DNA of 32,000 nt from contig OZ246420.1 in NCBI GenBank assembly GCA_965231145.1, forward strand, positions 180,001 to 212,000, in the 5' to 3' direction. Position 1 is the first letter of the stretch. Every line of letters starts with the position of its first letter. The translations under genes were made by a program, and so were the position numbers. The notes beneath the pieces are model-generated. The model made no database searches. It was not told the origin of the DNA and was given only the letters and a program-made list of their open reading frames with translations. The DNA comes from Candidatus Saccharimonadota bacterium (GTDB lineage: Bacteria > Patescibacteriota > Gracilibacteria > Absconditabacterales > Absconditicoccaceae). Below are positions 984 to 31,592 of this stretch, in pieces.

Positions 984-1013
984 AACTCTCAGGGTCACTG
1001 CTGAGAGTTTTTC
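984..1013. terminator. Hairpin between convergent genes (bidirectional terminator candidate)
   Basis: AACTCTCAG (984-992) pairs with CTGAGAGTT (1001-1009) across an 8-nt loop, followed by TTTT. It sits between the stop at 933 (+) and the stop at 1042 (-). Confidence 0.6.
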
Positions 1014-1041: not shown

Positions 1042-2103
1042 TTATTGTAATAAGACGAAGTTAGTAACAACGTATGCTGTTCCAATGATGATGATACCTA
1101 TGATAATATAGAGGAAATTTCTTTTGATCTTGTCGATTTGTTTTTCGTCGGTCGGGTTTCTGAGAAGGCTGATAGCCTCTATGATAATGAGTACGAGTAC
1201 GATAAATCCTACAAGTCCCATAACCCGGTTGAGCACAACATAGAGCCATGCAAACGATTTGTCTGCAAGCACGCCGCTGCCGATATCTGCAAGTGATGTG
1301 GCAAATGGATTTACCACTTCAGCTTCCTTTCCGTAAATAGTTTCTGCAAGAGATTTTGAAAAGATGATAGTCAATATACCGATGGTGTTCCATATGATGA
1401 TCGTTTTAGCATGGTCCTTTATCTTATCATCTGGACTCATCACAAATCTATACATATGAAGAAGGAGTATGAGGAAGAGTACTCCCATTACTAAGAACAT
1501 GATCATCTTGAGAAACGGAAATATGATCAGACTGTAGAGTTTCCATGCTGCTATATTTCCTTGAAAGAAGCCGTTGAAGTCGAGGACTCCTCATGCTCCG
1601 ATCAGTCTGCTTGCGATAAACGAAGCAGAAAGCATGATGATGATTCCTACGACGCCCCGAAGAAGATACGCAAATCATTTCTTTTGTGCGTCGTCTTTGT
1701 CGGCAGACATAATTTCGTAAAATCCTATGATTGCCATAAGTATCCCAACGATGATGAAAGCTGGGATGATAATCTTTTGTACTACCGCAATGATCGTATC
1801 TCTTGCGCCTTCAGCACCACCTCGTGCACCGGCGAAACCCGCGCCTTCAAGATGATTTTGGATAGGTAATGTGGTTTCTCTGATGGCTATATCAAAGCGA
1901 GAAAATAATAACGATCCTACTGTGGTTCCCATAAATGCGCCTATAACTCCTGCTCATCCACTACCTCCAAGAGCTCCAACAACACCCATGGGCGTGGTGG
2001 GTATTCCAGTAACTCCGAGACTTATCGCTGATGTAAACGAAAAACTAGTGAGCAAAGCTCAGAGTCAGATTCCATATGCTACTAGTTTTTTTAGAAAGTT
2101 CAT
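1042..2103 (-). CDS. Membrane protein with signal-peptide-like N-terminus and three tandem VirB2/TrbC-like pilin modules (hypothetical)
   Basis: ORFs 1042..1506 and 1675..1932 share a frame and join through TGA codons at 1591-1593, 1675-1677, 1954-1956, 2059-2061 and 2065-2067. The first ATG after an upstream TAG is at 2103, giving 353 aa. The N-terminus is MNFLKKLVAYGIGLGALLTSFSF. There are three helix / short polar loop / helix units: YEIMSADKDDAQKKGFAYLLRGVVGIII, YRFVMSPDDKIKDHAKTIIIWNTIGIL and SLLRNPTDEKQIDKIKRNFLYIIIGIII. The stop is TAA. Confidence 0.7.
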
Positions 2104-2165: not shown

Positions 2166-3158
2166 CTACTTGCTAGCTGCTACTTGCTTTTTTCCTCCAA
2201 GTAATGTGTAAAGAATAGGTATCTTTGGTAGTTTCCCCGAAGGAATAGTCATCAGTATCTTTCCGAGTAATAGTATCTGAGGAAGTAGTGCAAGATTGAG
2301 ACCGACAGTTGGGTTGCTACTGAGCCAGGTAACATAGCCTCGGTATCAGATCGCTCCAAGAGCGAGGAGATACTGCACGATAGTGCGCCAGTGTGATATG
2401 GGATCAAGCTGTGCATAGGTAGCTTTTCGTGATTCTATCTCTGTCGAGAGTGAAGAGTTTTTTTGAAATATCTTTTTAAGAAGATTTGTTATGAAGCCTA
2501 GTGGATACGCAATCAGTTCTTCAACGTTATGAGCAAAGAGATGGTTAAGTGCGTTCTTAGCAGGAAGAGAGATGAGGTCCATACCTACAACTACCATGAT
2601 CATCCTGGCTGCTATAAGAAATAGTCCGAGGAATATCATAGATGCTGATGGCCAGATACTAATGATGATAATGTAGAGAGACCGCCATAGGACACTTTCT
2701 TTGACCCATCGATAATTATGGTTGTCAAGCGTATCGTTGTACCACAGATAATAATTGTAGAGAGGCATGAAGTAACTTACGATTCAGAGATCATGGTTTA
2801 TAGTAAATTCTGAATTCTGAATTCTGGATTCTGGATTGTGTATTAAAGTTTTGTTATTGATGATAGCAAAAACTCCCATGATGATCATCAGGATGACAAT
2901 GCCGAGTAGTCCGTAGTTGATCCAATAGAGGATGGTGAGTGGAAACAAAAAACTATAGAATGCTCCTATGATGAGCGCAAGCCCTAAGACCGTCAAGATC
3001 CAATACCCATAGCGAATATAGCCTTTGACAAAAACTTCTTCTTCAGCTGGCACATCGATGCTTTTGTCCTTGAGCATAAATTGTACTGCAGGAGCAAGCA
3101 GCATGATGGCAGCCAGAGAGGCGAGGTTTTTGTCTGTAAAGCTTTGGTTGTTTGACAT
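2166..3158 (-). CDS. Multipass membrane protein, 330 aa (hypothetical)
   Basis: ORFs 2784..3158 and 2346..2768 share a frame. They are separated only by TGA at 2784-2786. A second TGA at 2346-2348 extends the frame to TAG at 2166-2168. There are several hydrophobic segments. It lies immediately downstream of the VirB4-like gene. Confidence 0.6.
2805..2839. repeat. Heptanucleotide tandem array (AAATTCT GAATTCT GAATTCT GGATTCT GGATTGT) inside a CDS
   Basis: Five consecutive 7-nt units read directly from the sequence. They lie just upstream of the TGA junction that fuses the two ORF halves of 2166..3158. Confidence 0.8.
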
Positions 3159-3229: not shown

Positions 3230-5284
3230 CTATTTAACGTCAGTTGTAATAAACTCTTTTTCCATGGGTGATGCTAAGATCTTAAGTGAGACGTGTTGGT
3301 TTCCTGCGAAGAGGACTCCTTCTCCGACTCCTGCTGCAACGAGCTTTTGTTTTTCTGCTTCAGATAATCCTACGATATTGTTAAGCTCTTTGATCGACGC
3401 TGTTGATTGTTTAAGGAGGATCTGCATAGCCGAGTTGGTGATGATTGGTTTTCCGTATTTCGATCTTGCGAAGTCTTCAATATCCTGTGTGATAGTGGTG
3501 ATACCGAGACCGTATTTTCTGGCTCTCTTTACCATACCATAGAGGAAGTTCGCGGAGATGTCATTTTGCATCATGATCCACGCCTCGTCGACTACGAGTA
3601 ATCTCTTTTCTTTTTTCGATCTTACTTTTGTCCAGATGAAGTTAAGGACGTTGTACATGGCTGGAGTTTTCAGTGCTTCATCCAAATCTCTGATAGAGAA
3701 GACGGTGAGCCCTGTGTTGAAGTCGACATTGGTATGGTTGTTGAAGAGCTTTCCAAATGTTCCTGTAACATATTTACTGAGTCTTACTGCGATACTATTT
3801 CCACCGTCTGTTCCTTCCAGAACGTGGAGCAGGTCTTCCATGATAGGTGGTTGTTTGTTTCCGTAACTCTCATCATCAAATGTGATTTCTTTGAGTGCAT
3901 ATGTTGATTGAAGTGCGCGGTCGAGCAACGCTTCTTCTTCTGACGTCAGTCCTCAGATCAATACAGAGATGAGTCCAATGAGACCCATGATCTGGGTTCT
4001 GAGTAGGTCTCCTTTCCCGTATTCAACATCTTCTACTCTTGGTGGAAGGTCGAAAGGATTTACATATTGCTGACTGTTAATAGCGATGTTTACATAGGTT
4101 CCGCCTACTTTGTCACAGAGCGCCTTATATTCGTTTTCGGGGTCGATTACAATGGTGGGAACTCAAAGGAGGAGGTATCTCATGATCTCCAGTTTCACAG
4201 TGAACGATTTACCGGCACCGGATGTCGCGAGTACGACGCTATTTGCATTGGTCATTTTCTTACCGAAACGGTCGAAGATAACGAGCGACCCTGTTTGCAT
4301 ATTTGCTCCGTAGAGAATTCCGGTTTTATCGATGAGGTCGTTTGAGATGAACGGGAAGCTTCCCGCAAGTGATGTCGTTACCATCGATCTTGTAATGCCG
4401 AGTTCATCGAGTCCAAGTGGCATTGTAGAGGTTAATCCTTCGTCCATTCTCTGGATGGCTGGTTTCATCCTGATACCATATCCTGCTATTTTCTGCTCGA
4501 GCTTCTTGCTTTCTTCATTGAGCTTTTCTTCGTTGCGCTCATAGAGCGATACATAACATGATGTCTCAAAATATCTTTCTTCGCGTGTCGCGAGTTTTTG
4601 TCTGATGTCTTCTACGTCACGATACTGGAGCTGAACTTCCGTATCGATGGTAATTCCTTTCGATGCTGATTCATTCATTTCAGCTCTGAGCTGTGTCGAG
4701 CGACGCTTGAGCATAGACTGAATATCACCGTCGTTTTCTGGATAGATAAACCATGACATATCCCACTTGTCGTAGAAGTTCATGAGATCTCTCGTCCACA
4801 GAAAATCGATATATGAAGGGTAGTTATGCGCGTAGTAAGTCTTCCCAAAAAGTCCTGAAGTATTTGTATACGATGGTTTTACCTCCCGGTAACTTGGTGC
4901 AATGTGCGACTTATAATCTGCAAGAGACGTCACGTACTCCTTTTCTACCTTCTGAATATGTCTTCTTAGATCTGACGTGAGGAGTTTGTCGCTGTACTGA
5001 TCATCCGGCAGTTCAATCATCCTCTTGATCTGCTCAGTGAGAGAGTCAGCCTTATGTGCCTCATCGATCTTCTTCTGTTCTTCTGCCTTTTCTGCTTCGC
5101 TCTTTTTCATCTTCTTTGGAGCGCCAAATATCCATGCGAAAAATTTATCAAAAAATGACTCCTTCTTTTTTGGAGTAGCTTCCGCTACCGCTTCTTTCGA
5201 AGCGATTTCTTTTTCGTCCACATACGGAAATCATCCCTGGGGGATAAACTGTGTGTAGTTTGTGTCGTATACAACGTTCAGCAT
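3230..5284 (-). CDS. virB4: VirB4/TrbE/ConE-like type IV secretion ATPase
   Basis: ORFs 3230..3928 and 4163..5221 share a frame and join through TGA at 3953-3955 and 4163-4165. Walker A is VLATSGAGKSFTVK. Walker B is RLLVVDEAWIMM. The motif VIDPENEY is also present. The start is set at ATG 5284 (one more TGA at 5231-5233), 27 nt downstream of a TTGCTG-N17-TATAAT promoter. The product is 684 aa and the stop is TAG. Confidence 0.9.
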
Positions 5285-5318
5285 GAGTTGAGAAGATTTT
5301 GTTTTATAAATCTCTTCT

Positions 5319-5347
5319 ATTATACGTAAAGAGCAAACCAGCAGCAA
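5319..5347 (-). promoter_or_regulatory. Sigma70-type promoter for the VirB4 operon
   Basis: Minus strand reads TTGCTG (5347-5342), a 17-nt spacer, then TATAAT (5324-5319). Confidence 0.55.
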
Positions 5348-5387
5348 TTTTGGGTCCGAAACTGGTGTTTTTCTTTGGAAAATGAGA

Positions 5388-5415
5388 TTGACATAAACGT
5401 AGGATTGTATATTGT
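5388..5415 (+). promoter_or_regulatory. Sigma70-type promoter (TTGACA ... TATTGT/TATATT)
   Basis: TTGACA at 5388-5393 with an A/T-rich -10 region at 5408-5415. The whole promoter and leader are near-duplicated at 5871-5915. Confidence 0.55.
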
Positions 5416-5450
5416 CTGTGGGTTAACAAAATTGCGCACTCTAAAAACTT

Positions 5451-5795
5451 ATGCTTATGTTGTTCTTAACACATGTTTACAGCCTTACAGGCCCTCTTGT
5501 GGCTGGGCAAAATTCGCTTACCAGGTATGTCGCAGCTTCGGATCCGAAAGGAGTAGACTATAGAACGTCTGATGGCGTTTCTCTTAGTGAGGCTGAAATT
5601 CAAAGCCTTGTACACCAAAATGTGCTTCGCCCTTTGCGTCCCGAGCCGTGTGTCATTGAACCTGATAAGGTTCTCTTGGTAAATTGTGTCGGTGGCGTCT
5701 ATCTGGTCGATAAAAACTATGAACAAAATAGGAAGACCATGCAGCGTATAGGTACGCTGCTTATGACAGACAAGCAGCTGCTTCCAGCTGCATAA
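5451..5795 (+). CDS. Hypothetical protein, 114 aa, paralog-family member
   Basis: ORF with a TAA stop, no in-frame TGA, its own promoter and its own terminator. It shares the motif LRPEPCVIEPDKVLLVNCVGGVYLVD with two repeats in the downstream 365-aa protein. The start codon is uncertain. Confidence 0.6.
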   Translation: MLMLFLTHVYSLTGPLVAGQNSLTRYVAASDPKGVDYRTSDGVSLSEAEIQSLVHQNVLRPLRPEPCVIEPDKVLLVNCVGGVYLVDKNYEQNRKTMQRIGTLLMTDKQLLPAA

Positions 5796-5819
5796 TGTCC
5801 TTGTGCTTAACGTATTTGT

Positions 5820-5844
5820 AAAGCTCCGTTTACGGGGCTTTTTT
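5820..5844 (+). terminator. Rho-independent terminator
   Basis: AAAGCTCCG, loop TTTA, CGGGGCTTT (one G-U pair), followed by TTTTTT. Confidence 0.75.
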
Positions 5845-5870
5845 GTATCATACATTCAGCGGAAATATAA

Positions 5871-5902
5871 TTGACATTGCCGTAAAGGTTGTATACTATA
5901 CT
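5871..5902 (+). promoter_or_regulatory. Sigma70-type promoter (TTGACA ... TACTAT/TATACT)
   Basis: TTGACA at 5871-5876 with -10 candidates at 5892-5902. It is a near-copy of the 5388 promoter, including the leader GGGGTAAACAAAT versus GGGTTAACAAAAT. Confidence 0.55.
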
Positions 5903-5940
5903 GGGGTAAACAAATAATCGAACTAAATAAAAAGAATTAT

Positions 5941-7038
5941 ATGAGAACATTCACAGTTAAATACATTCAAAGACCTTTTATGAAGGTTGAAGACCATTAC
6001 AAACCGAAAAAATTTCTGCGTAGAATTGATTTCTGGAGCGGAAATGAACCTGAAAATCTCAATTTCCATTGGCAGAACATAAATGTAAAGCCTCAGGATG
6101 TAGCAGATTTTCAGCGGCTTCTCTCTGCTAAAATGGTAATAGAATTGCCAGAATCAATTACTATTCCTGAAGGTAAATGCTTGTGGCTCTATATGGACTC
6201 AGGTTTGTATATTGCTGATGCACAAACTCCTTTAGAAAGCGATATGCAGATGGTCGCAATGACCACAAAATGTTGGAATACTGTGCCTGGTAATAAGCCT
6301 TCTGAAGAAAGACAATATCAAGATATTCTTGTTATAAGATATCTTATGGTGCCTTTTGAGGGCTATCCTCAAAAAGAAGGAGAACTTCGGGCGATGACTA
6401 TCGTTACTACAACGCTCACTGAGGAGATTGATAATAACTATCGCTTCGGCCCAAAACAACAATATGTTCATCATCGTGAAGAGAAATGGAAACAATGGCT
6501 GGCGCAAGGCAGAATTATTGAATTGTCGAAACCATTGATCCATAACCCTGGTCCCTGGGATGTAAAAGGAAAAGATAATGGTCTGAGTTTCTGGACGGAT
6601 AGTACAAAAACCCATCATTATGGACCTGTTCCTAAAGAGGCAAAATGCTATTTTTATACCCATTTGCTTCTTAGGGGTGCTAAGCCGCAAGAGGGTGAAA
6701 TAGTTCGTTCTCAAGCATATTATGGAATGTACTATTTGCTCGATATAGACCTAACGGTTTATTCCGGATATCCCCCTAATGAAGACCAATTTCATGAATC
6801 TGCAGAAGCCATGGCTGTTATGGAACGAGAAAATAAGGTGGTAAAATTGCCGAATCCTTATCGAATTCCACCTAATAAGCAGCTCTGGATTTCTGCTCAA
6901 GGGAATATCTATATGGCGCATTCTCAAAAACCTAATGAGCATCCATATGAACTTGTCATGAATGCTCCTATTATTGCGACACTGCCGTGCGACAGGACGT
7001 CTCTTATAATGTATCATGACTTTGCTGTGACGGCCTAA
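5941..7038 (+). CDS. Hypothetical protein, 365 aa, with internal repeats
   Basis: Uninterrupted ORF with a TAA stop. The internal repeats are VIELPESITIPEGKCLWLYMDSGLYIADAQTP (6136-6231) and VVKLPNPYRIPPNKQLWISAQGNIYMAHSQKP (6838-6933). I recognise no family. Confidence 0.75.
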   Translation: MRTFTVKYIQRPFMKVEDHYKPKKFLRRIDFWSGNEPENLNFHWQNINVKPQDVADFQRLLSAKMVIELPESITIPEGKCLWLYMDSGLYIADAQTPLESDMQMVAMTTKCWNTVPGNKPSEERQYQDILVIRYLMVPFEGYPQKEGELRAMTIVTTTLTEEIDNNYRFGPKQQYVHHREEKWKQWLAQGRIIELSKPLIHNPGPWDVKGKDNGLSFWTDSTKTHHYGPVPKEAKCYFYTHLLLRGAKPQEGEIVRSQAYYGMYYLLDIDLTVYSGYPPNEDQFHESAEAMAVMERENKVVKLPNPYRIPPNKQLWISAQGNIYMAHSQKPNEHPYELVMNAPIIATLPCDRTSLIMYHDFAVTA

Positions 7039-7063
7039 TAAATGCAGAATATTGATTGTTTTT

Positions 7064-7092
7064 AAGCGCGGATATTTGTCCGTGCTTTTTTG
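7064..7092 (+). terminator. Rho-independent terminator
   Basis: AGCGCGGA, loop TATTTG, TCCGTGCT (one G-U pair), followed by TTTTTT. Confidence 0.75.
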
Positions 7093-7112
7093 ATTTTTCA
7101 TCGGGAAATCCA

Positions 7113-7140
7113 TTGCATTTACTGAGCGAATAGTTATATA
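7113..7140 (+). promoter_or_regulatory. Sigma70-type promoter upstream of gatC
   Basis: TTGCAT (7113-7118), a 16-nt spacer, then TATATA (7135-7140). The same TTGCAT-N16-TATATA arrangement occurs at 13915-13942 on the minus strand. Confidence 0.5.
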
Positions 7141-7213
7141 TTTTCTACCTGTCAGACGCCCGTTTGGGTGGCTAAAAATGCAGGTATTTTTATTTACTTG
7201 TTTCTCCTTGGAT

Positions 7214-7510
7214 ATGACAGTGAGCGACGAACAGTTAGACCATCTTGGTAAACTCGCTGCGCTTCGTCTGACAACAGATGAAAAGGTTAGACTCGGGAAG
7301 CAGGTGAGTACTATTATTGATTTTGTCGGAAAGCTTGATGAGGTAGATGTAGAAGGCACAGAGCCTCTCTCTCATCCTATCGAATGAAGAACGGTTCACC
7401 TTTATAAGGAAGGTGAAACCTACCCCGATCCAGATGGACTGCTTGCAAATACGAAGCACCAACTGAAAAATAGAGGGATAGTGATGAAATCTGCCATACA
7501 GGCGAGTTAA
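7214..7510 (+). CDS. gatC: Asp/Glu-tRNA(Asn/Gln) amidotransferase subunit C
   Basis: MTVSDEQLDHLGKLAALRLTTDEKVRLGKQVSTIIDFVGKLDEVDVEGTEPLSHPIE continues through TGA (7385-7387) as G-RTVHLYKEGETYPDPDGLLANTKHQ...SAIQAS to TAA at 7508-7510. Both the length and the motif order are GatC-like. Confidence 0.85.
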
Positions 7511-7624: not shown

Positions 7625-9730
7625 ATGGCAGAGTCTAAACCATTACATCTAGTCAGAAACGTTGGTATCATCGCGCATATTGACGCAGGAAAGACAACTA
7701 CAACAGAACGTATCCTTTACTATACAGGTAAGAACCACAAGATCGGTGAAGTACATGAAGGTGCTGCAACGATGGACTGGATGGAACAGGAGCAGGAAAG
7801 AGGTATTACTATTACTTCAGCTGCGACAACATGTTTCTGGAGAGATAACCAGATTAACATCATCGACACTCCAGGTCACGTGGACTTTACTATTGAAGTA
7901 GAGCGTTCTCTTCTCGTACTTGACGGTGCGGTATGTGTACTTTCTTCATCTGATGCGGTTCAGCCTCAGACTGAAACTGTATGGAGACAGGCTGACAAAT
8001 ACGAAGTTCCTCGTATGTGTTTCGTAAACAAGATCGACAAGATCGGTGCAGACTTCAAGATGTGTATTGATGATATTAAGGAAAGACTTTCTGGAAAGGC
8101 AGTAGCTATCCAGCTTCCATATGGTGAGTCGTCAGACTTCAAGGGTATCGTAAACCTCATTAACATGAAGTACTATACATTTGAAGGAGACAATGGTGAA
8201 AAGCAAGTAGAGCACGACATTCCAGAAGATTTCAGAGCTGAGTGTGAATCTCGCAGAGAAATGCTTCTCGATGCTGCATCATCGTTTGATGATGAGCTCG
8301 CTGATAAGTTCCTTGGTGGTGAAGAAGTATCTATTGAGCTTCTTAAGAAAGCTGTAAGAAAGGGTGTAGTTACAGGAGAAATGTATCCAGTACTCGTAGG
8401 TTCAGCACTCAGAAATGCAGGTGTTCAGCTTATGCTCGACGCTGTCGTAGATTTCCTTCCATCTCCACTCGACATTGGTAACGTTCACGGAACTGATCTC
8501 GATGATGCTGATAAGCACATGGAAAGAGAGCCAAAAGACGATGCTCCAACATCATCTCTTGCATTCAAGATTATGACTGACCCATTTGTAGGTACTCTTA
8601 CGTTCGTAAGAATTTACTCTGGAGTGGTAAGATCTGGTGATGCGCTTCTCAATACAAGAACAGGAAACAAAGAGCGTATCGGGCGTTTGCTCCTCATGCA
8701 TGCAAATAAGAGAGAAGAAATTTCAGAAATCCACGCAGGACATATTGCTGCCTTCCTCGGTCTTAAGGACGTGAAGACAGGAGATACGCTCTGTGATATT
8801 AAGGATCCTATCGTTCTTGAGCGTATGGAGTTCCCTGAGCCAGTTATCTCGATCGCTGTAGAACCAGCATCGAAGAAGGATCAGGAAAAAATGGGTGTCG
8901 GACTCGGAAAGCTTGCTTATGAAGATCCATCATTCCGTTTCTATACAGACGAAGAGACAGGACAGACTATTATTGCGGGTATGGGAGAACTCCATCTTGA
9001 AATTATTGTTGACCGTCTTAAGAGAGAGCACAAGGTAGAGGTAGTAACTGGTAAGCCACAGGTTGCATACAGAGAAGCTATTTCTCACAATGCAGATGGT
9101 GAAGGAAAGTTCGTTCGTCAGTCTGGAGGACGTGGACAATACGGTCACGTACTTATCCATCTTGAAAAGCTCGAAGAAGAAGGAAAGATCTACGAGTTCC
9201 GTGATGATGTATCTGGAGGTACGATTCCTAAGGAGTTCATCCCAGCTATCGATAAGGGTGCTCAGGAAGTTATCAAGCAAGGTCCTATCGCTGGTTACCC
9301 AGTGATTGGTGTAAGAGTTGCTCCATACGATGGTTCATACCACGATGTCGACTCTTCAGAAGTTGCCTTCAAGGTTGCGACATACAGAGCGTTCAAGGAC
9401 GCGTTCTCTAAGGCAGGAGCTATGCTTCTCGAGCCAGTGATGAATGTAGAGGTAGTTACACCAGATGAGTACATGGGTGATGTTATGGGAGACCTTTCAT
9501 CAAGAAGAGGACTTATCAGCGGACAGGATCAGAGAGGAAAAGCTATGATCATCAAAGCTAAGGTACCACTTTCAGAAATGTTCGGTTACTCAACTCAGGT
9601 TCGTTCTATGACTCAGGGTAGAGCATCTTACTCTATGGAGTTCGCTTCATACGAGAAGGTGCCAAACAACGTAGCTGACAAGATCATCGAAGAAAGAAAA
9701 GGAAAAGTGAAAGGACTCGATGACGAATAA
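7625..9730 (+). CDS. fusA: Translation elongation factor G
   Basis: 701-aa uninterrupted ORF with G-domain motifs [17 protein letters not shown] and NKIDK. It is EF-G-like along its full length. It has no in-frame TGA and ends in TAA. Confidence 0.97.
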
Positions 9731-12511: not shown

Positions 12512-12922
12512 TTAGAGACTTCCGCTTGGACTGTTATAGTAGTCATTTTGATAGGAAGGGGTAGTAGATGTTCCGTTGAACATGTCTCCAAATCATTCTG
12601 ATCCGATGCCCATGATTTTCTTGATGATGACTCCGGCTCTGTTGAAAATATTTTGAGCGGTGTAGTCTTGATAGCCGCTTACTTTCATCTGTTTGAAAAG
12701 GATTGGAAATACAAAAAGGAGTAGTATCGTGATGATAATACCCATGATTGTATATCTAATGTTCTTAATAGCTTTTTGTATCACATCGTCTTTTCCGTCA
12801 GAGAAGATGAACTGGAAAATAGCACGGAAAAGAGAGTATATAGCTCCTGCAAACACGATAATGATAAGAATAGCGAGCACCGTGAGGATGATATCCTGCA
12901 TGGTTGTGTAGGTACTATTCAT
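12512..12922 (-). CDS. Small two-helix membrane protein, VirB2/TrbC pilin-like (hypothetical)
   Basis: ORF 12593..12922 extends through TGA (12593-12595) to TAA at 12512-12514, giving 136 aa. Two hydrophobic helices flank FQFIFSDGKDDVIQKAIKNIRYTIMGIIITILL. This is the same loop pattern as the three modules in 1042..2103. Confidence 0.65.
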
Positions 12923-15619: not shown

Positions 15620-18600
15620 ATGAGTAACACATTTGAGTTTAAGCTACAGACGCCTAGCGCAAGCAAGATTGATCTTGCAGGAGCAGAGATGGCTCAGTCG
15701 ATAGCAGATCTTAAAGACTCTCTCACAAGCCTGAAGGATCAGGTCATGAATTCGCAGGATGAAACCGAGGCGAAAGATGTTTTCTCGCAGGTAAAAGAGC
15801 ATCTGTATGCAGATGATGCAACTATGACTTTGAGAGTTGGTGATAAGTATATCACGACTGATTCCCCGGCTGAGTATACTCAGCGAAAGGCTCTCATCGA
15901 AGCTGATCTTGAGGCTGCAAACCAAGAAATTTCTGTCTACATGGAAAGTCTTAAGTCTGAGACTGATTTTGTTATGAAGCAAACAAAAAAAGAGGTACAG
16001 GTTGTGCAGGATGACGTTACAGGGAAAAAGCTCACGAAAAAGAAAGTAACAGAAACACAAAAGACCCGTACTACAGAGTTTACTTATGAAGATAACGATG
16101 AAGCTGTTCAGCCAGAGTGAACACAAGAGCAGCAATCACCCGTAAACGAAAATGAAGCGCCAGCAAATAAGGAAACAGTAAAACTTCCTACGCCTGATGT
16201 GTTTTGGCATCAAGATATCCATTTCTCTAATATTAAGAGTATTGCTCAGCTTGATGAAGCTTTTAGAAGAAATCCTGCCTATAGCAATCTACAAGGTGCT
16301 ATGGACAATCAGGATATTGTGAATGCTCTCAGAAACTATCATCAAAATCCAGATAGTGTGAAGGGGGTAAAAATTATTGATGGGTACTATCATATTTCTA
16401 CGCGTAACCCACTTTTTGAGACATCGTGGAATCCTAAGGGGAAGATTTGTATTCCTGTGCAACAGGTAGAAGTAGAGATCTTTCAGCCGAAGGCGTCGCC
16501 TGCGCCAGATAACTATGACTATAATAATAATCCAGACTCATATGATCGTACAAAAAATGTAGATGATCGTATGAAGCCTATAGATCAGGTATATCCTGGT
16601 AGTATGGATAGCTATAAGAATAAGGGAGTTCTCGGTGCGTTCTTTGGTAAGATTGCAGAAAATACAAATCTGAAAGATAAAGATGCAAAATCTATTGCGA
16701 ACCTTTGTAAAATCGCAACAGGTGGAGCGATGCTTTTCTTCGGTATCAGAAGTGTGATAGATCTTTTCAGTGCGTCAAAGCGTAAAAGAGGCCTGACAAC
16801 ACTTGGAGTGATGGCAGGGCTTGAACTTGGTTCACGTATGGCGTTTGGAGAAGGTATCAACAGTATGCTCAATGGAAAAAATCCTAAGGATGCTTGGGAT
16901 GCATTCTGTAAGAAATTTAATTTTGATGCGGTAAGTACCGATAATATCGATAGTAGCACAGTGGATCAAGTTATGGATCCCGCAACAGTGCATGCTATGA
17001 TTCAGGGTATTTCATGGGAAGATCAGAAGCTCTTTACTGTGGAAAACAGTGATGGTAGTGTGACAGTAGATCCTGTAAAATATAAAGAATATATTACAGT
17101 AAGAGCAACTACTGACAATAGTTTTAAAGCTACTCTTGCAAATAGACTGGAAGCATTGAAAGTGCTTATTGATAAGAACGTGCTACAACCATCGTTCAAT
17201 CAGTTCTATATCGCAAATGCATTCAATCCATTTACTGTAGACATATCTAAGAAGGATGAAAATCCTGATAACGAGCTTGCTGGTACAACAGCTATTAGAA
17301 ATACGCTTATTGAGCTTAGAAAAGGATACAAAACAGATGCTGATAAGATGGCAGCATATATAGGTAAACTAAAAAAAGAAAAGAGAGATGTTTCTACCGT
17401 AACAGTAGATGAGCTCAAAGATGCTGGTGTGATCACCGGTGTTCTTGCTAAGGAGGTGCTCGATACAGATCCTATTGATCCGGTACTCCAATCGCTTGTT
17501 GATGAAAATAAACTTACAACAAGAGATGCACAAAGTCTGACTAAGGCTAAGACCCAGCTTACAGAAGAACTCGTGAAGGTTGGCAGTCAAGATGCTGGAA
17601 AGGACATGGAATTTAAGGTGGTAGATGGCGCTATTTATCTTCATAGCCACGGATGGAGTATTGGTATTTCAAAGGTAGGAGATATGGACGACTGGAAAGT
17701 TGGTTCATTTGAACATAATTTCTCTGGTACTTATGAAGCGGTTCGCGTAGCAACGCTTACGAACTTCATCATTACTCACTACAAAGGTACAGTAGACAAG
17801 GGAGTAGAAGGACCGTTTAACTATAATGATAGAAACCTCAATATTCGTCAGCATGGAGCCATGACAAATCTTGGTAATCTCCAATTTGGGAAAGCCATAT
17901 TTGGGACTGCGGTTGTAGATGGAGCTGATGGATTTGCATCATCTCTTTCTAAGATCGGTGGCTCTGCTTTTGAATCGCAAGCAGGAAAGTATGCTGCATG
18001 GTTAAATAGCCTTAAGGGAACAGATGGTAAAACATCTATGTGGTACATGGGTAATGACACAGGAGTGACATGGGAAACTATTGCTCCACTGGCTGTTATC
18101 CCTGCGGTATCGCCAGATGTGGATCCTAATGAGCCAAATGCTACGCCAGATGCTAAAGAAAAAGAAAAGAAACCTTTTGTTTCTGAAGCGGAGGCTCTTG
18201 CAAACATGGAGAAATATAATCTTATGTTCACGCCAGCAGAACACTATGAGTGGATCGAGCCAAATCATGAAACAAATAACTATGCAACAGTTCCATTCCT
18301 TACTGATGTAGAGGCGATGGAAGATATGAACAAATATAACCTCGTGTTTGCTCCTCTCGGAGAAGATGAAACCCGGGCAGACGAAAAGAATAATCCTTCA
18401 ATCCCTGGTGTGGACGTTAAGAAGGCAAACTTTGCAGTAGCTATTAAAGAACAGCCAAATGCCCCAAAATGAAAGCCTAAGCCCAAAAACTTTAAAGTTC
18501 CTTTTGTCTCATTTGATCAGATACAGAAAGACAGAAAAGCAAATCATGTTGGTATCAGACCAAAGGATGGCTTTACGTGGGCTCACGATAAGAAGGCATT

Positions 18601-20221
18601 TGATAACTTCCATGTGATAAAGACAGGAGAAAAGATTGCTCCTCTTACGCTTGAAGATATGAAGAAAGACAGAAAGGCTCATCATGTCATGATTTCACCG
18701 AAGTCAGGTTTTGAGTTTGTGGAGCCAAACAATATGGATAACATGGCAACCAGAGAGCTCAATGCATGGGCGAAGACGAAAGAGTGGACTGCAGATAAGT
18801 GGACAGGATTTAAGGATTCAGCTTCAGATCTCGGTACATCTATTGGTAAGACATTTGATAGAATGGTTGCAGGTGATCTCTTTAAGAAGGAGCCAAGCAA
18901 TACCGTTGTTTACTGGAGAAAACATCTTACATATCTCAAAGATATGCTTTCAGATCTCGAGAGACAGTGAACAGCTATGGATAAATCTGTAGTGACTGCT
19001 ACAGAGATAGGACTTATGAAGGTCCATCTTGAAGAAACGGAAGAGAAACTTGCGAAGATAGAAAATATGTGGGGAGTAGATATTGATCCAGGACTCACTC
19101 CGAAAGATAAAAAATTCGACAGCGGATGGACAAATGCTCAAAAGAAAGAACTTACAACAGCTGAAAAGAAGATTAACTTTGAGCTCAAGTTTAAGGATAA
19201 AAATGACACAGCTCATTTTATTACCTACCAAGATAAGTCAGTTCGTCTTGCTTCATGGGCACAGGAAACACCTATAAGAATCGAAGGTGGTAAGTACTTC
19301 CTCGATAAGTTTATGGTGCCGTTTGACAATGCTGAAGATGTTGTGCGTATGGCTAATCTGACGAACTTCCTCAAGATCCATTTCAAGGATAAGGCGACAA
19401 CAAATGTTGATAATCCATGGGTTATAACAAATGATGGGGACCTTGAGTTTAAGGATCAGACAACATGGGATGCTACGAAGAAGCTTGACTGGAAGTGAAT
19501 GTTCTTCAATACAACAGCAGTCGATGGTGAGGATAATATTTCTTCAACTATCAAACATATCGGAGGATCTGTCTTTGAAGCTCAAAAGGTGAACTATGTG
19601 AAGTATCTTAACAACATGCAAAACGCAAGAAATGAAAATATGTGGCAGCTTAAGGATTCCGCAGGTATGGTTCCTGAAGCTCTCAAGACCCTGAAAGATA
19701 AGTTTGCAGGAAAGATTAATGTCGTTCGTTCGGGAAAACTAGAAACTCCTCAAAAACCAGATGAACTTACAGGAGAAATAAATATTTATGATAAAACTGC
19801 GAACCTTGAGACCAATGGATATCTTTCGCTTATCAGTCATGGTCAAAGAATAGATATTGATGCGAGTCCAGATGGCAAGGGATACAATATTGGATATCTC
19901 AATGGTAAGCAAGCCGATGGTACTCATAAAAAGGACATGTTGCCTATCAAGTTTATGACAGAAGAAGATGCATTGAGGGTGGCAAATCTTGTAAACTTCT
20001 ACAAGAAGTATTACAAGGGGCTTGGTACAAGTGACCAAGCATTCAATATCTCTGCGTACGGTAACGATCTAGAGTTTGCTGAAGACGGCGTGATGGACTG
20101 GATGGATCTTACAGCATTGGATAGTAAGGATGCTCTTGCGTACTCAAAGGACCTCGCTGGTAATAATCTTAATGCATTTGCTGTATGGCTCAATAACACA
20201 TGAGGTTGGGAAACTAAATAG
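15620..20221 (+). CDS. Giant hypothetical protein, 1533 aa, with a triplicated domain of about 135-140 aa
   Basis: Five ORF-track fragments (15593.., 16199.., 18614.., 18977.., 19499..) are all in one frame, separated only by TGA at 16118, 18470, 18968, 19496 and 20201. The first true stop is TAG at 20219-20221. The start is set at ATG 15620. I recognise no family. Confidence 0.8.
17606..18015 (+). repeat. Protein-level repeat 1 of 3 in the 1533-aa protein
   Basis: ...EAVRVATLTNFIITHYKG...TAVVDGADGFASSLSKIGGSAFESQAGKYAAWLNSL. Confidence 0.7.
19214..19618 (+). repeat. Protein-level repeat 2 of 3 (spans TGA at 19496-19498)
   Basis: ...EDVVRMANLTNFLKIHFKD...LDWK-G-MFFNTTAVDGEDNISSTIKHIGGSVFEAQKVNYVKYLNNM. 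Confidence 0.7.
19778..20200 (+). repeat. Protein-level repeat 3 of 3
   Basis: ...EDALRVANLVNFYKKYYKG...DLEFAEDGVMDWMDLTALDSKDALAYSKDLAGNNLNAFAVWLNNT. Confidence 0.65.
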
Positions 20222-20242
20222 ATTTATTGAAACATATAAACT

Positions 20243-23200
20243 ATGGGAGAAAATGACAAATTAGAGTACGATAAAGAAGTAGAAGATCAGGATAAAAGTC
20301 CTGAACTTTCTGCTGATAATAAAAAAACTGAAAATTCAGAGATCAGAGAGCAGAGTGAAACTGAAAATTCAAAGAATAAAGAAGAGGCTGCTGCGAAAGA
20401 AAATACGGAAATTAGTTTGTCAGATCTTCAGAAAAAAATTGAAGTGATTAAAGCTTCTGATGATTATAGTAAAGAAGTCAAAGAAGAAGCTCAGAACATA
20501 GCCAATGAGCTCACTGGAAATCCCAATGCTGATCAAAAGGAACTTGCAGAAAAAGCTGCTAAGATAGCTGTTCTTGAACAAAAAGAGAAGTGATGGTTTC
20601 AGAGAAATAAAAAAGAAATTATAAAGTGGATAAAGGGTATTGCTACCATAATTGGTGGTAGTGTTTTGGCTGGACGAAATAAAATTAAGGATTTCTTCGG
20701 TTTTGGAGATGAAGAGAGTGATGCAGAACCAAAGAAAGAAGAAGAGAAGAAATGAGGAAAAGAGGAAGCTCCTTCTTCGCCTGACAATGAAAATTCAAAC
20801 ACTGATAATCCCGAAACACCGCCGGAGGCGGATGTCGGAGACATTGACGATGCTGCTACGCCACCGGAAGAAAAGAATGATGATGCGGAAAAAGAGCCTG
20901 AGATGAATAAAACTGATGTTAATCGTGAAGTGACAAATAGCCTGAAATCATTTAAGGAGACTGCTCAAGAAATTGATAGCAACTTCAGTATGTTTACGAA
21001 AAATGAGAAAGATATAGAGGAAGATGGTAAGAAGCTCAATGCTGCGTATCAGAAAGTTATGGATGAGCTCACAAGACTCAACCAGCTCTTTCCTGAAGAT
21101 GCAGAGATGCAGGAACTTTATAGGTCGACAATGTATTCGCTCGCTGAGTTTTATTCTGATAGGTCAGATGTGGATAATGATCACCATGAAGATTCTATTA
21201 AGGCTGTACAGCTTCTTACGCCACTCGTCAATAATATTAAAAATGAAAATGGAGAGCCTTCGAAGCTTCCTCCTATGCCGACACAGGATGATCTTATGAA
21301 GTCTATAGCGACAGAAAATCCTACACTTGCTGAGAGCATTGCGATAAAGATACAACAAGGTTTGAGTATGGAGCAGATTCTTGCTGATAAAGATACATTG
21401 AAACAATGGAATGAAGCATATAAAAAACTTTTTGATACGTGGGAAAAGGGATTTGATGGCGCTTTGACTCTCATGTATACGAAATATAAAGAAGGGAAGT
21501 ATCCAGATATTACGCCGATGCAGAAAAAAGCATTTGAGATGCTTAAAGATATCCAAGGAACCAATGATCGATGGGACTGGAAGGATAGAAATGTAAATAT
21601 GGCGACAAATATCGCAGGAAGTGTAACGGCTATTACGGCTGGTATCGCAGTAACTATACTTACTGCTGGTCTTGGAACAGGGGCTGGTGTAGCTATTGCA
21701 TCTGTGGGAGCTGGAGCATTGACCACAACAGTTGGTATGTGGGTAAATGAAAATAAGTTGATGGGAGGATGAGATCTTGCCCTCGATTTTGCTCTCAATG
21801 CTATACCATTTGGTCTTGGTAAAACATTTGCGTATCTGAGAGATGGAGCAAAAGTTGCAACGAAAGCTGCGAAGTTCATCATGGCTTCAAGTTATCTTGC
21901 AGAATGAGCGCTTGATGTAACAATTACGAGCTGATGACAAACACTGAAGACGGGTGAGTCTTTTGGCCAAGCTTTGCAGGACAATCTTGCATGGGCTATT
22001 TTCCCGCTCGTGCTTCATCAGAGTAGCGCAGCGATGAAATATCTTAAGAACTCTCCAAAGCTGCAAGCTATTTTTGCAAGAAAAGATCTTGCAGATGAAA
22101 CATTGAATGACATTAATAAAGCAAAGATACTTGCACAACTTGGTAAGAAACAATTATCGCAAGAAATTTTGGATAAGCTCAATGCTAAGCTTACGAAACT
22201 TAAACGAAGTGAAACGATTAAACTGCTTGATGAAGAAGCGGCGCTTGTGGCAAAGAAAGAAAGTATGATTAAAGATATTAAGAGTTACATCGATGAAAAT
22301 GTTGTCCTTAATAGTAAGGCTAACATAACGCCTATTAAAAATGGTGCGATGGATAATTTCATGAAAGTCGGTGATAAGATGGTTGTAGAGAGTTCTAATG
22401 GTACGAGAAAGCAGATTACGCTTTTGAAGTTCAATGGTAAGAACTCGCTGGTAAGCATCGATGGAGGTCGTCCAGTAAAAGCCAATCTTGCGGGAGGAAA
22501 ACTGCATATTACTGACCCTATTTTCAAAGGTGAAACTATTACAGGTTCGTTTCTGGCGAAACATCCAAACGTAAGTGGAAAAAATATCACTGCTATGGTG
22601 TGAGAACTTGAATCTGTTAAGGTAGATATGCGCAGTCTGAAGTCTTTGGGTCTAAGCTTTAAGGCGTTTGGAATAGAAATGAGAGATCTTTCTGCTGTCT
22701 ATCCTCAGCTCAAGAGAGATATAAAAAATCTTAAGGTTGGTGAAAGCATCGATGATTTCCTTGGCTATAAAGTAACAAGGACCGATAAGGGTTTTGAGGC
22801 GGTAGACAAGAGTTGACACTCTGCGTCTGCAGCAAATAGTGACGTTCTGTTGAACCATATTTTGCCGAGCGCCGAAGCAAATGGAGAGAGAATTCTTGGT
22901 TATAAACTTGCACATTTCTATAGAAATAATCTGACGCCTGAAACTATTCAAGCTATCTTGCAAAAGAATATGTTGGGAAGATGACTTGGGAAGGTGAAGA
23001 AGCTTGTCGGTGGTAAAGGAGCTAGTGCATATGAAGTAAATGTAGATGGCGTAAAATACCAAGTGAAGTTTGATAAGAGTGTGCCGGAAGGTATCGTGTT
23101 TGCAGATGAAGCGGGTAAGGCTATCGCTGCAAATAGTCCTATAGTTCGTCAACTTGAGTCAAAGGTTTTTGTGAAGATGAGCGAGAAGTACAAAGCATTT

Positions 23201-23617
23201 GGTATCCACTGTAAAGATATACAGACTCCGTTAGGAAAACTTATACCAGAGCGTATGAAGCTGAAGATGTTTAAGACGATAGCTGATAAACTTCATAAGC
23301 CTCTTACAGTCATTGAAAATATGACTGTCGGTCAGGTCATTGAATCATTTCAGCAGTTCGCTGATGCGCCAACTTTTGCAAATTTTGTAAGAGCGCTTTC
23401 GGGAGGAGGAGGTCTCAATACGATGCTTTTGACATGAGTTATCATGATCGATGCAACGCAAAATAGACTTGATGAGATTGGAACAGATTATATAAAATAT
23501 GTATTGGGCGGAACGCTTATGCCGCTTGTCGATATTGTACAATCATATGGTGAAAGGAAATTAGAAGAGCATAAAGCGAACAATACTCAATGAGAAAATT
23601 TTAGTACAGAAACATAA
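20243..23617 (+). CDS. Giant hypothetical membrane-anchored protein, 1124 aa
   Basis: Fragments 20243.., 20903.., 21974.., 22628.. and 22994.. share one frame and join through 11 TGA codons, including the tandem TGA-TGA at 21932-21937. The stop is TAA at 23615-23617. The N-terminus is acidic and low-complexity. Hydrophobic segments are WIKGIATIIGGSVLAG and the Gly/Ala-rich NIAGSVTAITAGIAVTILTAGLGTGAGVAIASVGAGALTTTVGMWV. Confidence 0.8.
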
Positions 23618-23628
23618 TTAAAGCTCTG

Positions 23629-24681
23629 ATGGGTGAGATAAAAGATAGATATGAGACAGTCTATGAAAACCAGGATGCTGATACACAGCAGAAACTTTCT
23701 CAGTTGCAGGAAAGTATCAAAAGCCATGTAGAATCGGCACCATTGCAAATGTTAGAAAATAGTGTTATGGGTAAGGATAAGTGAAAGAAGCAGCTTAATA
23801 TAGCAGAGCTTATAAGTGCTGGTTATGGAAATAGAATATCAAGAGATGTGATCATGAGATACCTCACTGGTAGCAAAAATGAAAAGACCACGTTTTTTGG
23901 TAAGGCATGGCAGATGCTTGGTGACAAGTTTGTAGATCAGATCGTTAAACAGGATAACAGTTATGATTCGGTGCTTATAGTCCACGAAAAGATCATTATA
24001 CAAAAATTTCAGGCAGAGCTAAGCACCCTTAAAAGCTCTATAGTTGTTCCTACAGATGCAACATCTAAGCCTAATAATGCTCCAACTTCTGCTCCTGAGC
24101 AGACAAATGAAGGATATGCAAAAGAGTCTCATTATACGGAAGATGAAAAAACGCAGATTAATGAGGTGATATCTTCTGCAAAGAAGTTTGAAGGTGCACA
24201 ATATAAGTATGGTTGAACTAGTAAAAGTGGCATAGACTGTTCAGGCTTATGGTCTATGGCATTTAAAGAACAATATAAAGACGAATGACAAAATTTTGGT
24301 CGTTTAACTGCTGCGCTCTTTGATGCGAAAGCGCCTGATATTGCATCTAAGGATGTCGAGAGAGGAGACTGGATGTTTTGGGAAGATCCGAATGGAATCA
24401 AGAAAGGATGAAATAATGAAAAAGGAGAAAAGATTTATCACATTGAGATGGCACTTTGAAAACCCTTTGAAAAGGATGGAAAATGGTATGTAAAAACATA
24501 TGGTTCATCTAGTGATGAAAATATGACTGATGCAAATGGTAATCGTTTGAATAATGGGAAAAGTGGTGTGGGATATAGAATAAGAGAGATCAAAGATAAT
24601 CACCACTTTGCAAAGCCGCCGTATTATGCAAAACTTGTGGCGATGAATGATAATAATGATGTAAAGAAAAACGCAGCATAA
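23629..24681 (+). CDS. NlpC/P60-family peptidoglycan endopeptidase, 350 aa
   Basis: ATG at 23629 is in frame with ORF 23848..24216. Five TGA codons are read through. The C-terminal domain is YKYG-G-TSKSGIDCSGLWSMAF ... GDWMFWED ... IYHIEMAL. It carries the catalytic Cys and His, and the TGA at 24214-24216 supplies the conserved second Gly of the YxxGG motif. The stop is TAA at 24679-24681. Confidence 0.85.
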
Positions 24682-24705
24682 TATATTTAGTCTTTAGTGT
24701 GTACG

Positions 24706-27700: not shown

Positions 27701-27714
27701 AACAAACCACTTAA
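24706..27714 (+). CDS. Polytopic membrane protein, 1002 aa, with N-terminal coiled coil (ConG/VirB6-like role is inference only)
   Basis: Fragments 24697.., 25273.., 25807.., 26473.. and 27022.. share one frame and join through about 15 TGA codons. The stop is TAA at 27712-27714. There are at least 6-7 hydrophobic segments, for example WFFGLVGAMFIG, FELFGAGLATICG, SPIFIVGGLAMG, IMGLVPIVGPLLLL, AAVGGVLLGVDVV and WAIMAAVAAFGG. Confidence 0.8.
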
Positions 27715-27728
27715 TAGACAGAGGTACT

Positions 27729-27779
27729 AGATATAGACATAGGAAGAACCTATATCTATGTCTGCTTACTATATCTATG
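27729..27779 (+). repeat. Word-built hairpin after the operon's last stop codon
   Basis: AGATATAGACATAGG, loop AAGAA, CCTATATCTATGTCT (one mismatch, one G-U pair). A further direct copy of TATATCTATG lies at 27770-27779. Confidence 0.6.
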
Positions 27780-27818
27780 ATTATTATATTGAATAAGTAA
27801 AGTCAAAAAATATGATTT

Positions 27819-27842
27819 AAGAGTCCATTTGGGCTCTTTTTT
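27819..27842 (+). terminator. Rho-independent terminator
   Basis: AAGAGTCC, loop ATTT, GGGCTCTT, followed by TTTTT. The T-run runs into the next -35 element. Confidence 0.75.
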
Positions 27843-27869
27843 GATGTTTGGAATGAGCGCGGATATACT
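27841..27869 (+). promoter_or_regulatory. Sigma70-type promoter
   Basis: TTGATG (27841-27846), a 17-nt spacer, then TATACT (27864-27869). Confidence 0.6.
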
Positions 27870-27968
27870 AGTAAAAAGAGTATTTTATACGTGTATGTAT
27901 GAACAATGGCAAGAACTGCTCCAAATCAGGCCTTACAGTGAATAGAAAGGTCTAAGGAACTCCTGGAT

Positions 27969-30900: not shown

Positions 30901-31592
30901 AAAATAAGGGTAAAAATCAAACTTCTCCAGAAGTTGCTACTCTTACCAAGGCTATCAATGATCTCGAAGCGCAAGAGAGAAGACTACAAAATATCGCATA
31001 CAATGGACTAGCTATCGCAGATGCAGATTATGAAACAGATCTCAAGGCTGCGCAAATAGAGCTCACTGATTTTGAAGATCAAATCACTGACAATGAAACT
31101 CAGCATAAGCAACTCATTAAAGATAAAGATGCTGCTCAGGATGCCTACGACAAAGCTGTTCAGGAACTTGCGAAGATAGATGCTCAGCTTACATCGAAGA
31201 TGTCAGGAGACAAGGGCTATGCAGAACTTATTGCAGATAGAGCTATCCATGAAGCTGCAATTTCTACTGCAGATGCTACTATCTCTACTCAGCAAAAAAT
31301 TATAGACAAAGAAGCTCAGGCTTGAGTAGTTCATTCTGACTTCTATAGAATGTCTACCAGAATGGAAGGATTTGCAAAGAATGCAAAACACAATGTAGAT
31401 ACCAATCTTATTGCAGATCCAGCAACATATATGAAAGAAATCCAAAAACTTCTCGCTGATTTCAATGGTTACATTATTAGTAAGAAGGCAGCTTGATCAT
31501 CAACAGATAAGATTGATCGTATTAAAGCGATTGTTAGCAGAACAGATATAGATGAACAGGTAAAGGCAGATCTTATAGCCAATCTGAAATAA
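27969..31592 (+). CDS. Giant hypothetical coiled-coil protein, 1207 aa (alternative in-frame start ATG 27906)
   Basis: Fragments 27969.., 29499.. and 30159.. share one frame and join through TGA at 29478, 29820, 30060, 31323 and 31494. The stop is TAA at 31590-31592. The C-terminal half is K/E/A/Q-rich with heptad character and repeated DKGYA-x-L and ADADY motifs. Confidence 0.8.

Follow-up and report, generated by a model that had tools for sequence, protein, structure and literature searches.

Three pilin-like hairpins in one chain beside VirB4 in the Absconditabacterales

Can a pilin come in threes? The question is raised by a gene near the start of the window, as we call the whole 32,000-nucleotide stretch analysed here (positions 180,001 to 212,000 of contig OZ246420.1, assembly GCA_965231145.1, filed as Candidatus Saccharimonadota bacterium). 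The classical pilins of type IV secretion systems (T4SSs), VirB2 of Agrobacterium tumefaciens, TrbC of RP4 and TraA of F, belong to diderm systems; each is a single hairpin of about 70 to 120 amino acids (aa), shown to form pili by polymerising with lipid. An earlier note on this DNA had proposed something rather different for the window: a 353-aa protein in which three VirB2/TrbC-like modules follow one another, encoded close to VirB4. Scored against pilin profiles, the protein is indeed a VirB2-type 'pilin' component of a T4SS, with three anciently diverged hairpins in one chain. Its family, by the same profiles, is PF18895 T4SS_pilin, or the Mbov_0395 type of NCBIfam, and not classical TrbC/VirB2. 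Judged by alignment with its relatives, the fusion is real, old and conserved across the Absconditabacterales, and it is unannotated in databases.

The gene itself reads as follows.

1042-2103, minus strand: triple-pilin open reading frame (ORF), 353 aa under genetic code 25, stop codon TAA at 1042-1044

The ORF is present as it had been described, with five in-frame TGA codons at residues 13, 15, 50, 143 and 171 (nucleotides 2065-67, 2059-61, 1954-56, 1675-77 and 1591-93). Does any of them end translation? We aligned 47 complete orthologues, taken from the fetched loci, and used them for the TGA, linker and module-profile analyses alike. Glycine accounts for 53% of the residues opposite a TGA, against a background of 6%, and where the window has the TGA of its first loop ('QKK*F') the orthologues have 25 TGA and 20 glycine codons. 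The ORF listing gives TAA and TAG as the only stops in the window and in-frame TGA in nearly all of its long ORFs. Because of the aligned glycines, and because window ORFs end only at TAA or TAG, TGA does not terminate here. It is read as glycine, genetic code 25, which fits the Absconditabacterales and SR1 titles of the related genomes. A stop at TGA within the ORF is ruled out by its alignment with glycine codons in orthologues. Two genes contrast with nearly all the other long ORFs of the window in having no in-frame TGA at all: a 365-aa ORF of unknown function (5941-7038, plus strand) and EF-G (7625-9730, plus strand).

The code matters for what the databases hold. Some relatives are entered there at 197 aa, as if the gene were split, and these entries begin at the first ATG after an in-frame TGA. 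For one of them, P0006, reading the contig under code 25 gives a 312-aa ORF with three modules (locus L057, 4656-5594), so we rejected the 'split' genes as truncations made under code 11. P0005, P0007 and P0008 appear, by alignment, to show the same artefact, and the public gene calls run from 197 to 221 aa. Because gene calls use code 11, proteins of this kind are fragmented and under-counted in databases.

From its N-terminus to its C-terminus the protein divides into eight segments, all encoded on the minus strand.

2023-2103, minus strand: signal-peptide-like N-terminus, residues 1-27, with a KK n-region, a hydrophobic core and TSA
1903-2022, minus strand: Gly-rich hydrophobic insert, residues 28-67, specific to this genome ('GVVGALGGSGGAGVIGAFMGTTVG')
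1798-1902, minus strand: pre-module helix 'RFDxAI...IQxxLEGAG', residues 68-102, conserved in orthologues
1600-1797, minus strand: module 1 hairpin, residues 103-168, loop SADKDDAQKKG
1537-1599, minus strand: linker 1-2, residues 169-189, variable and predicted to be extracytoplasmic
1357-1536, minus strand: module 2 hairpin, residues 190-249, with loop SPDDKIKDHAK; of the three it diverges most
1255-1356, minus strand: linker 2-3, residues 250-283, the best conserved of the family's segments
1054-1254, minus strand: module 3 hairpin, residues 284-350, with loop NPTDEKQIDKIKRN; of the three the closest to a canonical pilin module

The units had been placed at 1606-1797, 1354-1536 and 1054-1251, which match these hairpins, and the loop strings quoted for them are found in the sequence. 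A signal-peptide-like start and a Gly-rich segment had been noticed too. Both are there. The start was read off the sequence and aligns with the N-termini of orthologues; the Gly-rich insert (34% glycine in residues 39-67) has no counterpart in any aligned orthologue, and is private to this genome and not a feature of the family. The repeat search at the DNA level detected none in it. A glycine-zipper-like stretch, 'AGLGTGAGVAIASVGAGALTTTVG', at about 21650-21790 (plus strand) within a 1124-aa ORF resembles this insert.

The two linkers differ markedly across the 47 orthologues. Linker 1-2 has a mean top-residue frequency of 0.35, with indels and a length of 17 to 25 aa. In linker 2-3 the frequency is 0.90 over residues 250-259 and 0.62 over the remainder, and five residues are invariant (K250, E254, G258, G275 and L279). 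A DNA-level search found no module-sized repeats in the ORF, and from this absence we conclude that the triplication is old.

What makes these hairpins pilins? The whole protein matches the Pfam family PF18895 (T4SS_pilin) over three stretches with 30.3 bits and an E value of 4.4e-7, above the gathering threshold of 26.6, and module 3 alone reaches 29.8 bits and so also exceeds it. The NCBIfam model NF045849 (Mbov_0395 family pilin-like conjugal transfer protein) gives 41.5 bits over two stretches, the best being residues 279-351, which is module 3. This barely clears the cutoff of 40, and it is doubtful whether a three-module protein should be called an 'equivalog'. We then have the modules' likeness to one another, compared with hhalign through profiles built from the 47 orthologues (a version with 11 sequences gave the same picture). 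Modules 1 and 2 pair with 93% probability, modules 2 and 3 with 88.5% and modules 1 and 3 with 76%; reversed controls stay at or below 0.9% for these module pairs, and at or below 1.3% when the canonical repeats are taken in as well. The similarity between modules that the earlier note expected is therefore there. Against canonical T4SS_pilin repeats module 3 scores 98.2% (E 6e-14), module 1 90.7% and module 2 only 36%. Modules 1 and 2 are thus tied to the family by profile-profile comparison, module 2 by way of modules 1 and 3. Neither the protein nor its modules match VirB3/PrgI or VirB6/TrbL (PF05101, PF12666, PF04610) at E ≤ 1.

That all this might be chance or artefact, a generic hydrophobic protein of shared composition or short ORFs joined through TGA, is a reading to which we give almost no credence: transmembrane sequences do inflate similarity scores and 197-aa entries do exist in databases, but reversed controls of at most 1.3% stand against 76-98% in the real comparisons, the protein clears the curated cutoffs of two pilin models independent of each other, TGA aligns with glycine codons, synteny with VirB4 is strict and the 197-aa entry is a code-11 truncation of a 312-aa ORF, and on these grounds (controls, cutoffs, synteny and codon alignment) we ruled it out.

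How widely is the fusion shared? When each species was scanned through a single genome, 52 loci came back; almost every one is titled Absconditabacterales or SR1, and the human oral taxon HOT-345 is among them. In about 50 of the 52 species genomes tblastn finds one continuous match over all three modules, typically query residues 26-311 in a single frame. A split version, with separate genes at the cassette position, was not found in these roughly 50 related genomes; the same fusion at the same position in relatives, which had been suggested as a check, is what they have. An exhaustive search of representative sequences widened the family: at E ≤ 1e-30 it matches at least 121 clusters (50% identity), and the three-module core is always C-terminal.

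The gene also keeps its company, which in the window is this.

3230-5284, minus strand: VirB4-like ATPase of conjugal transfer, 684 aa, of the CD1110 family and monoderm type
2166-3158, minus strand: polytopic membrane protein, 330 aa, between VirB4 and the triple pilin
984-1009, minus strand: terminator-like hairpin with a 9-bp stem, AACTCTCAG...CTGAGAGTT, 33 nucleotides past the stop codon

The ATPase scores 346.6 bits against NF045971 (cutoff 325) and matches the TraG P-loop family PF19044 with E 4.8e-26. All three genes lie on one strand with gaps of 71 and 62 nucleotides, the triple pilin being the second gene downstream of VirB4, and the hairpin at 984-1009 marks the end of the operon. 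It had been called the last gene of a VirB4 operon, and that description holds. In about 43 of the loci, by tblastn with the window's proteins, the triple pilin has VirB4 upstream of it and shares its strand; most of these have an ORF of about 290 to 350 aa between the two, and in about 31 loci tblastn detects similarity to the window's 330-aa protein. This polytopic protein matches no Pfam or NCBIfam family, and in the same databases five of its orthologues likewise gave no match to VirB6, TrbL or PrgI. Nor did any window ORF scanned give a Pfam match to a relaxase or coupling protein. The genes that neighbour the cassette are housekeeping ones: EF-G, GatC, two tRNAs and, as read from the sequence, S16. 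The closest genome, GCA_030429145.1, also has the EF-G gene, a Wzy-like gene and the gene for a 136-aa protein described below.

Some small features of the cassette can be set down here. The 62 nucleotides that separate the polytopic gene from the triple pilin (2104-2165) are made up of short direct repeats, GCATTTAGCACATA in 2.5 copies, and just past it, at 2163-2188, TTGCTAC occurs in 3.7 copies. In L030, an SR1 locus of oral type, VirB4 and the polytopic gene are separated by the gene for a GH25 muramidase of 357 aa (5873-6946, E 5.6e-17), and locus L029 has an ORF of similar size at that position. The muramidase has no counterpart in the window's cassette and is a candidate for a cell-wall hydrolase equivalent to VirB1.

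Topology is where prediction takes over. Kyte-Doolittle hydropathy finds six hydrophobic stretches, paired three times two. Lysine and arginine number three in each intra-module loop of 15 to 17 residues, and one in 21 and three in 34 residues of the linkers. An AlphaFold2 model of the orthologue P0003 (76% identical), made with a 69-sequence alignment, has a mean predicted local distance difference test (pLDDT) score of 82.8 and a predicted template modelling (pTM) score of 0.62; with a 10-sequence alignment the pLDDT was 50. The model has helix-turn-helix hairpins at 50-92/96-128, 140-180/184-215 and 243-273/278-310, preceded by a signal helix and one amphipathic helix, and our pre-module helix corresponds to its helix 27-46. 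The model makes part of linker 2-3 helical, at a pLDDT that drops to 64-79. Hydropathy and model thus agree with the three helical hairpins for which a topology prediction had been proposed.

The N-termini of the orthologues are often extended. The complete orthologues number 46, and 19 of them are 501 to 1003 aa long, with seven more at 375 to 442 aa. The additional sequence is N-terminal and starts directly after the polytopic gene. In L005, L015, L017, L019-L021, L025, L027, L028, L036 and L046 it amounts to an ectodomain of 540 to 710 aa. Among these eleven longest proteins the extension is on average 57% identical, compared with 79% for the core; four were counted for cysteine, with 26 to 34 residues in the extension and none in the pilin core. 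Pfam recognises no family in the extensions, which show repeated 'C...L.C.NG' units and then a domain of about 110 aa found also in the forms of 420 to 442 aa. This fits an exposed, faster-evolving ectodomain, and such Cys-rich N-terminal ectodomains, up to about 700 aa, appear to be carried by about half of the orthologues. Rich in cysteine and fast to evolve, the extension lends independent support to an N-terminus that is outside.

How, then, might such a protein work? The explanation we favour, and think moderately probable, is that it is an uncleaved 1:1:1 pilin protomer of a chromosomal, monoderm-type (MPF-FATA-like) T4SS of the Absconditabacterales/SR1. A Sec signal peptide would insert the chain with its N-terminus outside, and each module would cross the membrane as an out-in-out hairpin. 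The three short charged loops would then face the cytoplasm, where VirB4 sits, and the N-terminus and both linkers would face outward. Uncut, the chain would act as a fixed 1:1:1 hetero-trimeric protomer; oligomerising with VirB4 and the polytopic neighbour, it might build an envelope-spanning conduit or a pilus-like stalk. The N-terminal region, which in about half of the orthologues is the Cys-rich ectodomain, would be shown to a host or prey cell. We infer an intact chain because the conserved, partly helical linker 2-3 and the fixed order of the modules look structural, and not like a spacer. As for what becomes of the protein, we give almost an even chance to an uncleaved subunit that stays anchored in the membrane at the machine, and regard an uncleaved subunit extruded as a pilus-like polymer as possible, if on the unlikely side. 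A chain cleaved into three pilins would be a good deal less likely again, and something else altogether would surprise us most.

Several observations weigh against this picture. The first concern the family. Alone, module 1 (18.1 bits, E 0.003) and module 2 (16.7 bits, E 0.008) fall under the PF18895 threshold, and the match to PF04956 (TrbC/VirB2), at 16.5 bits and E 0.01, does not reach its gathering threshold of 27.9. A module-by-module profile search, as had been suggested, thus bears out module 3 and leaves modules 1 and 2, and the TrbC/VirB2 assignment, short of their thresholds. Kinship with PF04956 is at the superfamily level only, by way of a tandem relative, P0152, that scores 90.8 bits. 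Structure searches do not help: neither Foldseek against the PDB with the whole-chain P0003 model (best E 0.4) nor a sequence-profile search of the PDB (best E 0.18) found a significant match, and the top Foldseek/PDB matches were chance entries, G-protein-coupled receptors or designed helices. Bare two-helix hairpins are too simple for such a test, so the result is unsurprising; it nevertheless leaves structural kinship to the solved VirB2 and TraA pilins undemonstrated. The topology, too, is a prediction from hydropathy, charge counts and cysteine content. The Gly-rich insert has a mean Kyte-Doolittle value of 1.40, under the threshold for a transmembrane segment, and could, if it is a single transmembrane helix, flip the topology in this genome. 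The orthologue motif A-K-Q-I-V-E-A-I-Y-G-K has small residues at peptidase-compatible positions. And we know of no precedent for a six-helix protein being pulled from the membrane into a filament.

Of the alternatives, the one that survives best is nonetheless unlikely. It would make the protein a six-helix membrane scaffold, derived from pilins, that stands in for VirB6 and/or VirB3 and holds VirB4 at the contact site, together with an adhesin ectodomain in the orthologues. With the membrane-resident form of the explanation we favour it has much in common; what sets it apart is the claim that VirB6/VirB3 are replaced. The published record offers it some comfort: VirB6 homologues are reported to be absent from Gracilibacteria, where virB4 has a VirB3 homologue near it in just 4.7% of the VirB3 cases (PMC12102498), and monoderm T4SSs are described as normally lacking pili (PMC12857230). 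The name and origin of NF045849 place related 'pilin-like' proteins in the integrative and conjugative elements (ICEs) of wall-less Mycoplasma, and the large ectodomains at orthologue N-termini would suit an anchor. On the other side, the 330-aa polytopic neighbour is an equal or better candidate for VirB6, and it is pilin profiles that all three modules match, with no VirB3/PrgI or VirB6 match among them.

Could the chain instead be a polyprotein, as the earlier note had wondered? We consider it decidedly unlikely. Signal peptidase I or a dedicated protease would cut both linkers and release three pilins in equal amounts, much as a three-gene array would. Classical VirB2 and TrbC pilins do undergo proteolytic processing, which speaks for the idea. 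So do the second helices of the modules, which run in-to-out and resemble signal peptides, and the start of linker 2-3, where the motif just mentioned is near-invariant, its small residues falling at possible -3 and -1 positions. Other Patescibacteria, moreover, have separate pilin genes (PMC12102498). Four points run the other way, none of them decisive. Linker 1-2, poorly conserved and variable in length as it is, has no conserved motif; that of linker 2-3 is modelled as the continuation of a helix, which would make a poor substrate for signal peptidase I; module number and order are fixed over about 50 species; and the pTM of 0.62 suggests a defined arrangement of the modules.

With the uncleaved protomer as the favoured reading, how does the protein compare with what is known? 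The resemblance to VirB2, TrbC and TraA lies in the signal peptide, the pair of hydrophobic helices with a short polar loop, and the linkage to VirB4. The differences are the unmet PF04956 threshold, three hairpins in 353 aa, and a monoderm-type system known here from its genes. Nearer in profile is the Mbov_0395 family of Mycoplasma ICEs (NF045849), whose cutoff is passed through module 3. That model has 80 positions, and single-hairpin components of ICEs are expected from it, whereas the present protein is chromosomal, found order-wide and built of three modules; the window's VirB4 scores 291 bits against the Mycoplasma ICE VirB4 model NF045975, below the cutoff of 590. Fused or enlarged inner-membrane parts are on record for T4SSs, as VirB3-VirB4 fusions and 'extended' VirB6 proteins (PMC12102498 and PMC12857230). 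Those belong to other families, and no VirB3/PrgI or VirB6 profile matches here.

The closest comparison comes from the Patescibacteria themselves. Published work places VirB2-like pilins near virB4 and counts 441 arrays of 2 to 11 separate, highly divergent pilin genes (PMC12102498, PMC12857230). A six-gene array is reported as essential in Ca. Southlakia epibionticum ML1, and a 'Sec secreted array' is described in Ca. Nanosynbacter lyticus TM7x (both PMC12102498 and PMC12857230). Like the arrays, the triple pilin belongs to Pfam PF18895, has the same hairpin with an acidic-then-basic loop, and sits close to a VirB4 of monoderm type, in a window where Pfam matches no relaxase. Array paralogues are reported to average 25% identity; the modules here share about 16-23% (hhalign). 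Unlike in the arrays, a single polypeptide here unites the paralogues as its three modules, fixed in number and order across an order-level clade, with linker 2-3 the most conserved part and a Cys-rich N-terminal ectodomain added in many orthologues. The triple pilin looks like a fused counterpart of the multi-gene VirB2-like arrays.

Nor is it alone in being fused. Among distant matches are proteins with 3, 4, 6, 7 and 8 canonical T4SS_pilin modules per polypeptide (111-236 bits), multi-module examples annotated as hypothetical being P0120 (four), P0124 (six), P0152 (seven) and P0133 (eight). A saccharibacterial protein, P0177, has two modules, and its neighbours are VirB4, a TraC-like protein and a PrgI-family protein as well as single pilins; one four-module gene sits within an array of five single-pilin genes. 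What the triple pilin shares with these proteins is that one ORF strings pilin hairpins together covalently. Where their context was read, their genes belong to pilin arrays, in one case next to VirB4, PrgI and TraC-like genes. Their repeats are mutually similar and canonical and look like recent duplications, whereas the window's modules are old, specialised and non-interchangeable; and they coexist with single-module pilins, whereas in the cassette the triple pilin was the one gene of the pilin family to be seen. The architecture, suggested at the outset to be unusual, is so when set against characterised T4SSs, but it is not unique, given proteins of 2 to 8 modules in other Patescibacteria. 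A literature search that covered part of the journals turned up papers on arrays of separate genes and no fused multi-module pilins, and the conserved three-module form is apparently undescribed.

Away from the cassette, about 9.4 kb from the operon, there is probably a separate single-module pilin-like gene, to go by its profile matches (12512-12922, minus strand). It encodes the 136-aa protein, two hydrophobic helices around a loop, 'SDGKDDVIQKAIKN', and a tail rich in Gly, Ser and Tyr. Compared with canonical T4SS_pilin modules it scores 86% in hhalign (reversed control 0.4%), with E 4e-4 against NF045849 and only E 0.16 against PF18895. It is conserved, at 81% in the closest genome and 39% in the oral SR1 HOT-345.

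Why should any of this matter? VirB2-like pilins of Patescibacteria were known already; what is new is a fused form with three specialised modules, often tipped with an ectodomain. In a covalent fusion the set of paralogues that work together, and their ratio, are fixed, and the fusion constrains their relative orientation, as the termini of neighbouring units must lie within reach of a linker. The family shows in addition that the N-terminus can bear ectodomains of about 600 to 700 aa, and it offers a ready-made hetero-trimer for structural modelling or purification. The ectoloop between modules 2 and 3 and the variable ectodomain are candidate host-contact surfaces in predatory or parasitic SR1, human oral taxa among them. 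In the only member of the Patescibacteria that is open to genetics, the T4SS is essential for living as an epibiont, and its pilin array is essential as well (PMC12857230, PMC11665869). One can take the thought further, into what is frankly speculative and rather doubtful ground: a single-chain hetero-trimeric pilin conduit with a disulfide-rich, fast-evolving adhesin at its N-terminus would be a prey-recognition organelle, and 'poly-pilins' of 2 to 8 hairpins would be general, and so far overlooked, in the T4SSs of Patescibacteria. To our knowledge all solved conjugative pili share a five-start architecture of one pilin and one lipid. A poly-pilin conduit, if real, would be a filament or channel of a different symmetry.

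The rest of the window holds a few further observations. The GatC-like ORF (7016-7510) has its Pfam match confined to residues 85-147, and for this reason its true start is probably downstream. Upstream of VirB4 is a gap of 650 nucleotides (5285-5940) with only implausible ORFs on either strand. It contains, on the plus strand, a sigma-70-like promoter at 5388-5415 (10 of 12 matches) and a strong terminator at 5820-5841 followed by a T run. An Rfam search of 5250-5960 gave no match even at E ≤ 1; promoter and terminator in so ORF-poor a gap suggest an unannotated RNA of about 430 nucleotides. Further along, from 15620 to 31592 on the plus strand, four large ORFs follow one another (1533, 1124, 1002 and 1228 aa, each with 5 to 15 in-frame TGA codons). 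None has a Pfam match. They bracket a 350-aa NlpC/P60 peptidoglycan hydrolase (23629-24681, E 1.1e-7), and the region may be a cell-envelope or predation locus.

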